A stretch of 64,000 nt of DNA from Spirochaetota bacterium (GCA_043803405.1 JAZDKB010000020.1:44064-108063), one strand, 5' to 3'; positions 32,479 through 36,219 are shown, counted from the first letter of the stretch. Program-made: numbers and translations. The notes: generated by a model not told the origin, from the sequence alone.

Positions 32479-33834
32479 TTAAATAAAAAATAAATCATTC
32501 TCAGGATTATCTCTCTCGACTCTGTTCATCAAGGCATTTAAAATCATTTCCAGAATGCGTATAGCTCCACGGTAACCGACAATCGGCAAATAGGAATGAA
32601 TATGCCTGTCCATGACGGGAAATCCGATTCTGACAAAAGGCACATCCTCTGTTCGTGATAAAAATTTTCCATGGGTCTCACCCATAAGCAAATCCACATG
32701 ATCATTTTTAATCCATTGTTGCAGATCAAATAGGTCAGCCGGACTTTTAGCCATACCATTTATATTGTATTTTGTAAAAACTTTCTGCATTCTCTCTTCA
32801 AAATAAACCCCCGGTGTTCCGCTGACCGCATATTTAGGAACTAATCCAATCCCAGCCAGAAATTCGGCAAGCGCGATTATCAGATCAGGGTCCCCGAATA
32901 GAGCTATTTTCTTACTATAAAAATATGACTGTGCATCCAAAATAATATCTATAACCTGTTCTCTTTCTTCTTCTAAATCAGGAGCAACATCCCGATGGCT
33001 TAACTTTGTCAATGCCATAATAAAACGGTCCGTTGCATCAATACCGATTGGCAGGTCCATTAATTCTAAAGGCACTCCGCACTGATTTTGGAGTTGTACG
33101 GCAGCCTCCTCAGTTGCATATTTTCCAAAGGCAATTGTCTTCTTGCAATTTCCCAGATCGATAATATCTGAAACTTTGGTTCCACCGGATGGATATTCGT
33201 TAATCTTTTCGACTCCACGCTGGCCGAATATTCCGCAGGTATCCGGAAACAGGATATGATCTATGCCCATAAGGCAGGTGATTCGTTTAATTTCCTTCAT
33301 ATCGCCCGGGTTAACAAATCCCGGAAGAATACATATCTTATTATTAAGACACCTTTTTTTAGCTAAATATTTTATGGCGGCAACAAGCATATTGGAGAAT
33401 CCGGTAATATGAGAACCTGTAAAACTGGGAGTATTTGCATGAATTATATATTTTCCTTCCGGCATCGGAAAATCATGCAGACAGGCTTTAATATCGTCCC
33501 CGATGATTTCACTTAGACAGGTCGTATGTACTGCAATAATTTCCGGATCATACAGATTAATAATATTCCGGACTGCTGTCTGCAGGTTGGACTCTCCTCC
33601 AAATATGGATGCTGATTCCTTTAATACACTGGTTGTTATTTTAAAGGATTGGCGGAAATGTCTTTGCAACAGTGTTCTCTGGAAACGGCTGCAGCCGGAT
33701 GAGCCATGGCTATGGGGCATACAGCCGTGAATTCCCAGAGAAGCATATATCGCTCCCAAAGGCTGACATCCGGCTAACGGATTTATCCGCAGTGCCTCTC
33801 TGCCAACAGGTTCTTTCGGCGTCAAATCAAGCAT
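32479..33834 (-). CDS. Nitrogenase component 1 beta-like subunit (clostridial NifK-like)
   Basis: MLDLTPKE..REALRINP..CQP, HGSSGC, TTCLSE..GDD, NTPSF.GSH..G, RIGFP..DR. Confidence 0.9.
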   Translation of the reverse strand: MLDLTPKEPVGREALRINPLAGCQPLGAIYASLGIHGCMPHSHGSSGCSRFQRTLLQRHFRQSFKITTSVLKESASIFGGESNLQTAVRNIINLYDPEIIAVHTTCLSEIIGDDIKACLHDFPMPEGKYIIHANTPSFTGSHITGFSNMLVAAIKYLAKKRCLNNKICILPGFVNPGDMKEIKRITCLMGIDHILFPDTCGIFGQRGVEKINEYPSGGTKVSDIIDLGNCKKTIAFGKYATEEAAVQLQNQCGVPLELMDLPIGIDATDRFIMALTKLSHRDVAPDLEEEREQVIDIILDAQSYFYSKKIALFGDPDLIIALAEFLAGIGLVPKYAVSGTPGVYFEERMQKVFTKYNINGMAKSPADLFDLQQWIKNDHVDLLMGETHGKFLSRTEDVPFVRIGFPVMDRHIHSYLPIVGYRGAIRILEMILNALMNRVERDNPENDLFFI

Positions 33835-33848
33835 TGCAAACTCTCCTG

Positions 33849-35384
33849 CTACTCATGAGATTTTATTTTCCATGGCGCCACATTGTTCTGCCAAACCGCC
33901 ATCTGCATGTTCATTAATAAATCCCGTGCGAAAAGAATTGCTCCATGAAATCCGCCATAATCAAAACGATATTGATCCGTTTTAAAAAAGCAGAAGAAAG
34001 AATTGGCTGCAACTCCCGTAAAAATTTTTTTGATTCCAGGGAAATAAATATCGGGCTTAATAATCTTTAGCAAATGTTCGGTTTCTTCATGACTGAGATT
34101 GGGAATCAGCATACTATTGTAATCTGTTCTTGAATAAACGCCGTTATCGTAGTTAAACAATAGCTCAGGCATTATTTCTGTTTTTATTTCTTCAAATAAC
34201 CGGGAAGGAAGTGTAATATGGTAATGCTCCAGATCGGTGTCGTATCGCAATGTTCCTTTTTCTTTTGCGGCGGAAACTCCTGGAACACTTTCTGCCGCAG
34301 ACAGAAAGCTGATTTCGTTTTGTCCATTAGTACAAAATAATTCATTGCCGATAATCACAGGATTAACTTCCAGATCGGTAAGCAGCGCCTGATAATGGCG
34401 GGAAACGAATTCATCCTCAAAAATTACCGCTGTTTTATTTCTTAATTTATTTTTATAATTATTTAACTCATCCTGAATCTTTGCCAATTCTTCAGAAATT
34501 AATGCTTCCGTTCTATTCGCCAGTTCAGGTACATCGAAAAAATCAGCTATATTTTTTAAAGAATTAATTACATTATCCATACCTATAAAATTGAATTTAA
34601 GCCAATTTGTGCCGAACTTTTCATGCAGGACTTTAACCATGTCAGCCACGGCCTTATCGCTGCTGAATAAATTTAAATGAGCCTTATGGGCATTTTTCAG
34701 ATCATCGTAGCTGCCGTCTCCCATTAAGACCGCTACGATATCATAACCTATCTTTTTAAATATCCTGGTGATTTCCTTGGCTCTCTGGCCGTTAAAAAAC
34801 TCTCCTATAATATTTACCGGGTATTTACCCGTATTTTGTTGTCCGGTACCTATAACATTTTCAATGATACCCTGATTAGCCAGTCTATATCCGGGAATAC
34901 TTCTGAAACCTTCACAGGAAAAAGAAAGCACTTTAATTCCATATTCCATTTCTGCCTGTTGTGCGATGCTCTGTATGTCATCACCTATTAACCCAACAGG
35001 ACATGTGGAACAAATCGCGATGACTTGCGGATGAAAAATATTAACTGCTTCTTTTATAGCCTGCTTCAATTTTTTTTCTCCGCCAAAAATGACATCGCTT
35101 TCTTCCATGTTAGTTGAAAAGTCGTAGCTGAAATAATCATCTTTTGCATTTTCAGGCATTTGCCGGATGCGATTGCCTCCCCATGAATAGTAAGAGCAGC
35201 CTACCGGTCCGTGGGTAATGATAAAAATACCGCTGATTGGTGTCAAAACCAATCCTTTGCAGGCCATGTAGGAACAGCCGTGCTTGCATAATATGCCGGG
35301 GGTGTCCATTATCAGGCTGCTGATCTCTCTTTCTCCGGTAATGACTTTATGTTTCAAATCATCACATTCAGTAATCGACTTCAT
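33849..35384 (-). CDS. Nitrogenase component 1 alpha-like subunit lacking FeMo-co ligands
   Basis: GCSY, HGPVGC, FSTNMEESDVIFGG, TCPVGLIGDD, CEGF; LNLFSSDK at the Cys275 site, no H-S-x-D-Y motif. Confidence 0.9.
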   Translation of the reverse strand: MKSITECDDLKHKVITGEREISSLIMDTPGILCKHGCSYMACKGLVLTPISGIFIITHGPVGCSYYSWGGNRIRQMPENAKDDYFSYDFSTNMEESDVIFGGEKKLKQAIKEAVNIFHPQVIAICSTCPVGLIGDDIQSIAQQAEMEYGIKVLSFSCEGFRSIPGYRLANQGIIENVIGTGQQNTGKYPVNIIGEFFNGQRAKEITRIFKKIGYDIVAVLMGDGSYDDLKNAHKAHLNLFSSDKAVADMVKVLHEKFGTNWLKFNFIGMDNVINSLKNIADFFDVPELANRTEALISEELAKIQDELNNYKNKLRNKTAVIFEDEFVSRHYQALLTDLEVNPVIIGNELFCTNGQNEISFLSAAESVPGVSAAKEKGTLRYDTDLEHYHITLPSRLFEEIKTEIMPELLFNYDNGVYSRTDYNSMLIPNLSHEETEHLLKIIKPDIYFPGIKKIFTGVAANSFFCFFKTDQYRFDYGGFHGAILFARDLLMNMQMAVWQNNVAPWKIKSHE

Positions 35385-35388
35385 TTAT

Positions 35389-36219
35389 TTACGCTCCCCA
35401 TTGACCGACCCACTCTTCAAGTTCATCCAACTCCATAGGTTCGGGTATTACCAAATCCTTATTATAATCAATATTGTCTGCCAGACTCTCGTATATTTGG
35501 CTCTGAGATGAGTTAGGAGCATATTGAACGACAGTTTGCTTTTTAATTTCAGCCTCATGGACAATGCTGTTCCAGGGAATGAATTGAATCATATGTGTGC
35601 CCAGTCTTTCAGCAAAAGCCTGAATTAAATTTTCTTCTTTCTTAACCCGGCGCGAATTGCAAACAAGACCGCCAAGCCGTGCCCCGCCTGTATTCGCAAA
35701 TTTTTTAATGCCTTTGCAGATATTATTAGCTGCGTACATGGACATTATCTCACCTGAAGTAATAATATAGATTTCCCTGGCTTTTCCCTCACGGATAGGC
35801 ATGGCAAAACCGCCGCAAACGACATCTCCCAACACATCATAAAATATATAGTCCAGATCATCTGTAAATGCCCCCAGTCTTTCAAGCAATTCAATTGACG
35901 TAATGATACCCCGTCCCGCGCAACCTACACCCGGCTCAGGGCCGCCTGACTCTACACATTGAATACCGTTAAAGCCGGATTCAAGAACGTCCTCAAGTTT
36001 AACCTGTCCATATTGCCGCAGGCTATCCAGAACAGTCGCCTGTCTTTTACCGCCAACCAGCATTCTTGTGGAATCCGCTTTGGGATCGCAGCCTATCTGC
36101 ATTACCTTTTTCCCTTTCCCGGCAAGGGCAGCCGACAGATTCTGAGTTGTCGTGGATTTACCTATACCGCCTTTTCCGTAAATTGCTATCCTTCGGCATT
36201 TATTATCTTCATTATTCAT
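35389..36219 (-). CDS. nifH: Nitrogenase iron protein
   Basis: [49 protein letters not shown]. Confidence 0.95.

Follow-up and report, generated by a model that had tools for sequence, protein, structure and literature searches.

What does a nitrogenase-type enzyme do once the site that holds the iron-molybdenum cofactor (FeMo-co) has been lost? The question is raised by three adjacent genes, here termed H', D' and K' after nifH, nifD and nifK, at positions 32,479 to 36,219 of a 64,000-nucleotide stretch of DNA from a Spirochaetota bacterium (GCA_043803405.1, JAZDKB010000020.1:44064-108063); the whole stretch is referred to as the window. A first reading of the DNA (the original prediction) had described a nitrogenase-derived trio that keeps the ligands of the P-cluster, has lost the FeMo-co site and reduces a different substrate. 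As read from gene order and sequence signals, the trio is the distal part of an import operon, comprising a TonB-dependent receptor, a periplasmic binding protein (PBP), a FecCD permease and an ATP-binding cassette (ABC) ATPase, with molybdenum-type regulation. These two features narrow the "different substrate" to something tied to the supply of molybdenum or tungsten (Mo/W), and suggest a nitrogenase-type machine re-used for Mo/W supply rather than for N2 fixation.

Conserved P-cluster ligands and rebuilt cofactor pocket

All three open reading frames (ORFs) are intact, as had been claimed, and follow one another on the minus strand with intergenic gaps of 4 and 14 bp (Table 1). The canonical nature ascribed to H' is borne out by a score of 434.3 bits on TIGR01287 (nifH), above the cut-off of 394.35, and by Fe-protein features readable in the translation, namely the P-loop, the VCGGF motif and the two cysteines of the [4Fe-4S] site. 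For D' and K', nifD and nifK are the best curated models, yet the NCBIfam equivalog cut-offs are not reached: D' scores 367.3 bits on nifD (cut-off 653.55) and 272.9 on nifE, and K' 355.4 bits on nifK (cut-off 427.3) and 264.7 on nifN. The best solved match of D' is Clostridium pasteurianum NifD (1MIO_A; 369 bits, residues 20-510 against 35-523), in an alignment that takes in the group II insertion of about 50 residues. That of K' is 1MIO_B (528 bits, residues 1-448), and its N-terminus reads MLDLTPKE against MLDATPKE in C. pasteurianum NifK, the MLDxTPKE start to which attention had been drawn. The alignments to both chains agree with the prediction that six P-cluster cysteines and the TPSF serine are kept: Cys37, Cys63 and Cys128 of D' align with the P-cluster ligand positions of C. 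pasteurianum NifD, while Cys23, Cys48, Cys106 and the TPS(F) serine of K' show no variation among six K' and three canonical NifK sequences. AlphaFold2 gave only a poor prediction for D' (mean pLDDT 49, pTM 0.41) from an alignment of the 13 family sequences described below.

A natural D'-K' fusion of 1022 aa occurs in one lineage. The fusions are P0281 and P0285 (P0013 cluster); their K' part is 63% identical to K' of the window, and their D' part contains a low-complexity insertion rich in Ala, Pro and Ser.

The FeMo-co pocket of D' has been rewritten. Residue numbers follow Azotobacter vinelandii NifD, with the group I representative P0130 as proxy; the numbering of P0130 agrees with the expected residues as far as position 195, beyond which it runs one behind. 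Against 1MIO_A, D' reads LNLFSSDK for LNLVQCHR (Cys to Ser), ffKtdqy for qlHsydy (His to Lys), KGLV for KGVV, GGNR for GGRR and EDEFV for VGGSR; a three-residue deletion takes out the SQS of the Gln191 loop, and GYR replaces GHH. The changes listed in the original prediction (C275S, H442K, V70L, R96N, a shortened Gln191/His195 loop and GGxR to DEFV) were all seen in these alignments, in which Gln191 is deleted, H195Y is added and every FeMo-co contact checked is replaced.

The same rewriting characterises the 13 clusters of the D' family, where 15 pocket positions are altered in 13/13 and the ancestral residue is present in 18/18 canonical NifD. Fixed throughout are V70L, the loss of Gln191 by the three-residue deletion, H195Y, H196R, C275S, R277K, Glu-Asp-Glu-Phe in place of (V/I)-Gly-Gly-(L/S), R359V/I, F381L and Q440F/Y. 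Both FeMo-co ligands are missing from the family, Cys275 being Ser in 13/13 and His442, which is His in 18/18 canonical NifD, being Asn, Lys or Gln in 13/13; the Lys at the homocitrate-anchor position is present in 10/13. Conserved Glu-Asp-Glu, Lys, Tyr-Arg and Asp residues fill the pocket, and the alignments show it rebuilt into a conserved polar, acidic site.

Family, selection and evolutionary origin

A search of 5.8 billion protein clusters returned 12 other clusters at 50-77% identity to D', below which identity falls sharply to canonical clostridial NifD at no more than 43%. D' represents its own cluster in a 50%-identity library; it is followed by P0121, P0122 and P0126 (45, 40 and 34% identity), which show the D' hallmarks, namely RGL, the deletion, S-D/G-K, E-D-x-F and no His. 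The family's named records belong to Syntrophomonas/Syntrophomonadaceae and 'Firmicutes HGW-15', and those of the sister cluster to Desulfosporosinus, including the cultured D. fructosivorans. Family members are annotated in public records as nitrogenase ('nitrogenase MoFe protein alpha chain').

The ratio of non-synonymous to synonymous substitution rates (dN/dS; Nei-Gojobori) was taken from the least saturated pairs: H' gave 0.092 and 0.108, D' gave 0.135 and 0.129, and K' gave 0.093 and 0.108. The original prediction had allowed for a decaying duplicate, with dN/dS near 1 and no homologs sharing the substitutions; this is ruled out because the pocket changes are fixed in 13/13 clusters and dN/dS is about 0.09-0.14. 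These values support the view that H', D' and K' are functional genes under selection. Divergence has been uneven, as judged by identities: canonical group II proteins are mutually 64% (D), 65% (K) and 81% (H) identical, and the window proteins share 36-42% (39%; D'), 50% (K') and 64% (H') with them, so that D' has diverged disproportionately compared with H' and K'.

A tree of 70 D rows (IQ-TREE, LG+C20, quick search) unites the 13 family members with P0121, P0122 and P0126 in one clade on a long stem (support 100 in the Shimodaira-Hasegawa-like approximate likelihood ratio test, SH-aLRT). This clade is nested in that of the long-form group II NifD (46 rows, 100 SH-aLRT), with Bacillota sequences around it (39 rows, 88) and at a remove from the clade with the host's NifD (7 rows, 99); NifE, Vnf, group I and other representatives fall outside the group II NifD clade. 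In a tree of 46 K rows, the six K' (100) lie within the group II NifK clade (34 rows, 98), their neighbours being a clostridial/Eubacteriaceae clade. The safe statement from these trees is that D' and K' lie inside, or are sister to, group II NifD and NifK. Together with the shared insertion, they bear out the earlier proposal of descent from a true clostridial-type Mo-nitrogenase rather than from Bch or Cfb enzymes, and speak equally against a Mar-type origin; the Mar-like D and K of the host sit on very long separate branches. The H' sequences of the cassettes likewise form a clade of their own (100 SH-aLRT) with the same internal branching as D' and K', which indicates that the three genes travel together. 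Elsewhere in the D tree, P0176, P0199, P0215 and P0220, NifD-like proteins with 216-315 bits on nifD, join the group I representative as its sister group (99 SH-aLRT); their stem is very long (1.82), and they may be either another lineage derived from true nitrogenase or an artefact of long branches.

The host is likely to have acquired the trio horizontally, from a donor of Bacillota type, since its own NifD is just 34% identical to D' and no D' family member was found in 60 related genomes. Canonical NifD swamped a scan of genome contigs made with the family alignment: the 80 loci returned, all at no more than 43% identity bar one partial match at 47%, included no family member. Genomes with the sister clade (P0122, Desulfosporosinus) numbered 0/31, 0/58, 0/88 and 0/374. 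Eight candidate family loci, L135-L140 from a phylum sample together with L141 and L142, were rejected as ordinary nif clusters.

Independence from FeMo-co assembly

The window had been described as free of nifB/E/N, nifI and glnB/amtB. Indeed, none of nifB/E/N, PII or amtB was found among the 55 window ORFs of at least 120 aa that were scanned, D' and K' are the only PF00148 genes on the window contig, and the H'D'K' cassette contains no nifI, nifV or nifB. The genes in question do occur in the host, off the window contig, as part of a full nifH-I1-I2-D-K-E-N-B(-V) cluster.

Two other genomes are informative on this point. In a phylum sample of 401 genomes around a Syntrophomonadaceae genome, two carry the family, G126 (a single 3.23 Mb contig) and G436. 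In both, PF00148 is limited to D' and K', and no NifB match is better than E = 1e-4. D'K' cannot depend on FeMo-co because these two genomes lack NifB, NifEN and canonical NifDK, and their gene content supports an enzyme that would work without synthesis of the L-cluster or FeMo-co. The ATP-driven, P-cluster-only reductase with an open pocket that had been proposed is therefore upheld as regards its independence from FeMo-co; its centre is a putative P-cluster, and the word "open" is not borne out, as conserved polar residues fill the pocket.

The host has a further nitrogenase-like cluster at C15:22355-26965, with a NifB-like radical SAM protein (279 bits on nifB, under the cut-off), a NifH-like protein and a D/K-like pair. 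It comes directly after MetN/MetI/MetQ-like ABC genes and looks like the methylthio-alkane-reductase (Mar) type.

Co-inheritance with an importer operon

The cassette was compared across seven loci: that of the window, four metagenome loci retrieved with a family-specific DNA pattern (L099-L102) and two from the genome sample (L133 and L134). They represent about four lineages, L099 and L102 being twins, L100 and L134 being close to each other and the window being close to L101. The order PBP-FecCD-ABC-H'-D'-K' was found in 6/6 loci long enough to contain it, L134 beginning at the ABC gene, and the proteins conserved in order are 60-89% identical to their window counterparts. Orthologs of the ATPase (73-82% identity) lie upstream of H' in 7/7 loci, either directly or before a small methyltransferase gene.

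The importer has the components of the MolBC-A type, namely a FecCD permease, an ABC ATPase and a class III PBP. The permease has BtuC as its best NCBIfam match (223.6 bits, below the cut-off). Among solved relatives of the PBP, 4PAG (161 bits) and 4OVK (80 bits) score higher than Haemophilus influenzae HI_1472 (MolA, 3PSA/3PSH; 64 bits, E = 1e-16). The TonB-dependent receptor, at 92.8 bits on TIGR01783 (below the cut-off), has a 64% identical ortholog in the same place in L101. Taken together, these gene orders show H'D'K' co-inherited with a MolBC-A-like type II ABC importer, to which a TonB receptor is added in diderm hosts. The sister clade probably shares the partnership, to judge from matching contig sizes: of 22 PBP clusters at no less than 59% identity, nine share their longest-contig size with a D' or sister-clade contig, and three of the size-matched contigs (827037, 122423 and 57631 bp) are from Desulfosporosinus.

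Accessory genes vary between lineages. L101 has the TonB receptor, MoeA (66% identical, in the same position as in the window) and DUF364; in L133, XdhC (17 bp from K'), FmdE with a zinc ribbon and DUF364 follow directly after K'; in L099 and L102, FmdE, DUF364 and a TrmO-like gene are transcribed divergently. DUF364 genes thus flank the cassette in L099, L101, L102 and L133. S-adenosylmethionine (SAM) methyltransferases near the cassette were rejected as core parts, not being orthologous across loci.

Molybdenum-type regulation

Two kinds of signal show, at the level of sequence, that the operon is under regulation of the molybdenum or molybdenum-cofactor (Moco) type. In the window, the promoters of the mod operon and of the receptor-to-K' operon have the same 8-N8-8 palindrome next to the -35 box. 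A relaxed pattern, CG.TAT[AG]T-N6-10-A[CT]ATA.CG, occurs seven times in the window, eight on the contig and nine in the 3.98 Mb genome, against a Markov expectation of 0.0 per window (no hit in any of 200 runs) and roughly 0.1 per Mb. Its sites precede the mod operon, moeA, the receptor-to-K' operon, DUF364 and two unnamed operons; it was not found in 1.53 Mb of canonical nif loci, nor in the other family loci. The candidate binder, a ModE-like helix-turn-helix (HTH) regulator, scores 74.2 bits on TIGR00637 (ModE_repress; cut-off 98.5) and has no TOBE/Mop domain.

The second signal is a Moco riboswitch (RF01055) located about 100 nt upstream of the PBP start in L102 and its twin L099; in L102 it scores 66.7 bits and its P3 stem is present. 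RF01055 matches in L102 and L099 score 66.7 and 72.4 bits against a gathering score of 36. In the window, L100, L101, L133 and L134, a sensitive search against Rfam yielded no riboswitch, and RF01055 was not found in the window's genome. A scan for consensus promoters and terminators did no better than shuffled sequences (38 against 34.3, and 17 against 12.8).

A second Moco-family riboswitch was observed at L102:2622-2740 on the minus strand (72.4 bits), between the TrmO-like/DUF364/FmdE operon and a TnpB/Cas12f-like ORF; it has no P3 stem, and P3-less variants are reportedly tied to the tungsten cofactor. In the window, the operators at 22591-22614, 22873-22896 and 26902-26925 fall within 21276-26925, where two operons encode proteins of 410 and 441 aa without a Pfam family and a third TonB receptor (23030-25435); these may be parts of a Mo regulon.

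Comparison with known systems

The closest known relative is the group II Mo-nitrogenase (C. pasteurianum MoFe protein, 1MIO and 4WES), with which the trio shares the D insertion, the short K N-terminus, the six P-cluster cysteines, the beta-subunit serine and the Fe-protein motifs. Unlike it, D' is devoid of Cys275 and His442, the whole cofactor and homocitrate shell is replaced, nifI1/I2 are absent between H and D, and within the operon the trio is partnered by an importer. NifEN resembles D'K' as a non-nitrogenase paralogue of NifDK that cooperates with NifH, handles Mo insertion and has no His442 equivalent. However, D' and K' score lower on nifE/nifN than on nifD/nifK, D' falls outside the NifE clade (split at 99 SH-aLRT) and K' outside the NifN rows; moreover, NifE keeps the cysteine equivalent to Cys275, whereas D' does not.

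Relatives of nitrogenase have been re-tasked before, in chlorophyll and F430 synthesis and in the cleavage of organic sulfur, and each of them opened a field; to our knowledge, all of these branch outside the true nitrogenases. The H'D'K' clade branches with the true nitrogenases, and shows how a working nitrogenase can be retooled. It also means that surveys based on nifH, nifD or nifK will miscount such genes as nitrogen fixers. The importer partnership makes it testable how anaerobes obtain Mo/W in sulfidic settings and whether ATP-driven reduction is needed for this, and the sister-clade gene of the cultured Desulfosporosinus fructosivorans makes bench tests feasible.

A 2026 review distinguishes nitrogenase groups I-III, MSL and VII from nitrogen-fixation-like (NFL) groups IV-A to IV-F, V and VI (PMC13474568). 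The NFL systems (MarHDK in IV-C, IsrHDK in IV-F, CfbCD in IV-B, DPOR/COR in V, and group VI) resemble H'D'K' in combining an ATP-dependent Fe-protein with a NifDK-like component for a reaction other than N2 reduction, and the review describes several that have no His442, as well as Mar, which keeps Cys275 and a NifB-like partner (PMC13474568). In contrast to them, D' and K' cluster with group II NifD and NifK (100 and 98 SH-aLRT) and not as a separate clade, in trees whose rows do not include named references for groups IV-D, IV-E, IV-F and VI. Section 2.4 of the review ties no NFL system to a metal importer or to Moco regulation, and the word 'siderophore' is absent from the text, in which 'ABC transporter' occurs twice (PMC13474568). 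By its sequences, the H'D'K' family thus fails as a nitrogenase, given the missing cofactor ligands, scores below the cut-offs and no dependence on NifB, and equally fails NFL placement.

On the importer side, MolBC-A of H. influenzae (HI1470-HI1472) is described as a type II importer of molybdate and tungstate with MolA (HI_1472) as binder (PMC3928620; PMC4031551), its expression being repressed by molybdate (PMC4031551). Besides the three shared component types, with MolA as the third-best solved relative of the PBP, it is reported to lie beside modD and modA, as the trio's operon does in the window (PMC3928620), and it shares Mo-responsive control, seen here in sequence signals (the riboswitch of L099 and L102, the operator of the window). 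It differs in having neither nitrogenase-like genes nor a TonB receptor, and the similarity of the binding proteins is modest (64 bits), so that the cargo may differ.

Nitrogenase-like genes have been noted beside an ABC ATPase before, as pairs of NifH and NifEN-like proteins downstream of such a gene in Clostridium botulinum and Alkaliphilus oremlandii (Dos Santos et al., 2012, PMC3464626). These too comprise an H protein and a two-subunit set without FeMo-co ligands; they are, however, described as divergent group IV proteins whose NifN-like subunit has no conserved cysteines (PMC3464626), whereas K' has three and is 50% identical to true NifK. A literature search (figures and supplements of PMC3464626 and PMC13474568 aside) returned no account of the present clade or of a Moco-controlled nitrogenase-like gene. 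Judged on sequence, H'D'K' is a nitrogenase-like variant that derives from within or beside the true nitrogenases and is tied to Mo/W supply.

Proposed function and alternative explanations

The reading we prefer, at a probability of about 0.4, is that H'D'K' acts as a reductase of the P-cluster type, driven by ATP, through which imported Mo/W is processed for use in the pterin cofactor. A descendant of clostridial-type (group II) Mo-nitrogenase would have given up FeMo-co and become the cytoplasmic arm of a Mo/W acquisition operon. H' would hydrolyse ATP and send low-potential electrons through the P-cluster-type centre of D'K' to the rebuilt pocket, where an imported Mo/W species or its carrier ligand would be reduced or released, the metal then being handed to MoeA, XdhC or FmdE for the pterin cofactor. 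The ancestral Fe-protein-dependent Mo-handling step of nitrogenase maturation would have been kept and N2 reduction dropped. A more specific form, possible but somewhat doubtful, is that of an ATP-powered 'metal unloader', a reductase serving uptake of the TonB/MolBC-A type: its Glu-Asp-Glu/Lys pocket would bind the imported Mo/W, for instance in a thio- or chelate-bound form common in sulfidic habitats, and electrons from the P-cluster would convert it for loading onto molybdopterin by MoeA, XdhC or FmdE. If true, this would be the first nitrogenase-family enzyme for pterin-cofactor metal supply, and a direct evolutionary bridge between both biological uses of molybdenum.

Several points weigh against a role in Mo/W processing. 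The main weakness is chemical: in textbook Moco synthesis molybdate does not have to be reduced, which leaves an ATP-driven reductase without an evident purpose. The PBP is nearer to 4PAG than to MolA, the ModE-like regulator stays under its family cut-off, and the operator motif was derived from two window sites before counting, which leaves five independent ones. Each regulatory signal is confined, the riboswitch to one lineage (L099/L102) and the operator to one genome, and L100, L101, L133 and L134 have neither. On descent, the nesting within group II lacks significance, since a clade made up of canonical group II NifK survives the approximately unbiased test (p = 0.103).

Co-regulation with Mo uptake would suit a Mo-starvation backup equally well. 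By analogy with the Mo-repressed alternative nitrogenases that stand in for Mo-nitrogenase, a Mo-free D'K' reductase might replace the reaction of some Moco enzyme when Mo is scarce, sharing only its regulation with the importer. The operator, placed beside the -35 box just as in the mod operon, resembles a repressor site, and the riboswitch upstream in L102 and the lack of Mo-cofactor ligands in D'K' agree with this; even so, the trio is joined to importer genes at every locus across differently regulated hosts, which exceeds shared regulation, and no candidate reaction or substrate gene accompanies it, so that we regard such a backup as unlikely. Induction under Mo shortage would in turn be odd for a consumer of Mo, and this speaks against D'K' being a new Mo/W or Moco enzyme, whose former FeMo-co pocket would hold mononuclear Mo/W or a pterin fed by the P-cluster while the operon provided a private metal supply and chaperones (MoeA, XdhC). 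Such an enzyme would account for XdhC, of a Moco-insertion chaperone family, 17 bp after K' in L133, for MoeA after K' in two loci and for conserved Glu-Asp-Glu, Lys and Asp that could ligate metal. Moco RNAs, moreover, are associated not only with Mo transport and Moco synthesis genes but also with genes for Moco-using proteins (Regulski et al., PMC2408646). On balance we consider it distinctly unlikely.

The usual cargo of type II importers and TonB receptors is a large chelate or cofactor, which leaves room for salvage: an oxidised molybdopterin, a Moco breakdown product or an organic chelate might be imported, its ring or ligand reduced by D'K', much as tetrapyrroles are by DPOR, COR and CfbCD, and the product re-metallated by MoeA. 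MoeA lies downstream and Moco regulation is present; yet MoaC in 3/3 carriers tested makes de novo synthesis likely, the cassette has no pterin-binding family, and the pocket is charged rather than lined with aromatic stacking residues, which renders salvage improbable. (The absence of MoaE from G126 and G436 was dropped as a clue, three non-carrier relatives being without MoaE too.) Equally improbable is a non-catalytic D'K' that scaffolds, stores or senses Mo/W or Fe-S fragments in the manner of NifEN or NifX, with H' as loader. It would fit the part played by the Fe-protein and NifEN in Mo insertion during FeMo-co assembly, the missing Cys and His ligands and the homocitrate-anchor Lys in 10/13 members, but all six P-cluster ligands and the strong constraint on H' point to electron transfer, and a storage protein would not be expected to switch on under Mo shortage. 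Finally, H' passes the nifH cut-off and the public annotation says nitrogenase, as a residual or alternative nitrogenase still reducing N2 with an unusual cofactor would have it. This is extremely improbable: 13/13 clusters have lost both cofactor ligands along with every second-shell residue, G126 and G436 have neither NifB nor NifEN, and the cassette is without nifI, nifV and nifB.

Organisation of the window and further observations

Table 1. Features of the window related to the H'D'K' operon and its regulation (coordinates counted from the first letter of the window).
Feature	Coordinates	Strand	Description
H'	35389-36219	minus	276 aa; NifH-type Fe-protein, ATPase with [4Fe-4S] site
D'	33849-35384	minus	511 aa; NifD-derived subunit; P-cluster Cys kept, FeMo-co and homocitrate contacts replaced
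K'	32479-33834	minus	451 aa; NifK-derived; P-cluster Cys23/48/106 and Ser137
TonB-dependent outer-membrane receptor	39530-41872	minus	Plug and TonB_dep_Rec_b-barrel; first gene of the operon
Peripla_BP_2 periplasmic/lipoprotein binding protein (PBP), MolA-like	38271-39404	minus	PF01497; orthologs at 60-74% in 6/6 loci reaching so far
FecCD/BtuC-type permease, type II ABC importer	37023-38180	minus	PF01032, 292 bits; orthologs at 72-84% identity
Importer ABC ATPase	36247-37032	minus	PF00005; 10 bp overlap with permease, 27 bp gap to H'
MoeA (molybdopterin molybdotransferase family)	31044-32324	minus	MoeA_N, MoCF_biosynth, MoeA_C; directly downstream of K'
ExbB-ExbD-TonB energising set	27152-28981	minus	Tied to receptors by position only
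ModE-like operator CGCTATGT-N8-ACATAACG	42058-42081		Promoter region of receptor-to-K' operon; starts 9 nt after TTGACA
ModE-like operator	32404-32427		K'-moeA gap
Operator and modD-modA-modA-modB-modC molybdate transporter genes	16746-21121	plus	Operator in common with the H'D'K' operon
ModE-like HTH regulator	51837-52208	plus	123 aa; HTH_1; candidate operator binder; operator at 51724-51747 beside the gene
DUF364/DUF4213 protein	50759-51739	minus	Belongs to operator regulon

The 125-bp gap that separates the TonB receptor and PBP genes contains a GC-rich hairpin, ATGCCGGCCCGGCAT, at 39491-39505, which may be an attenuator or an element of RNA stability within the operon. MoeA is followed by an EamA-type transporter with a long His-rich C-terminal tail (29966-31036), which looks like a metal-binding exporter, and this in turn by a SAM methyltransferase (29123-29944); the EamA arrangement is not conserved in the other loci. 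Another uptake set occupies 42167-51739 on the same strand, with a TonB receptor, a Peripla_BP_2 protein, two SBP_bac_6 proteins, a CobW/HypB-like GTPase, an odd ABC ATPase of 349 aa, DUF1847 and DUF364; a permease gene is missing from this set. Positions 1-12000 of the window are low in GC (26-33% against about 40-47% elsewhere) and carry sugar-nucleotide and polysaccharide genes together with an 861-aa B12-binding radical SAM/SPASM protein (689-3274), a stretch that is probably a separate surface-glycan island.

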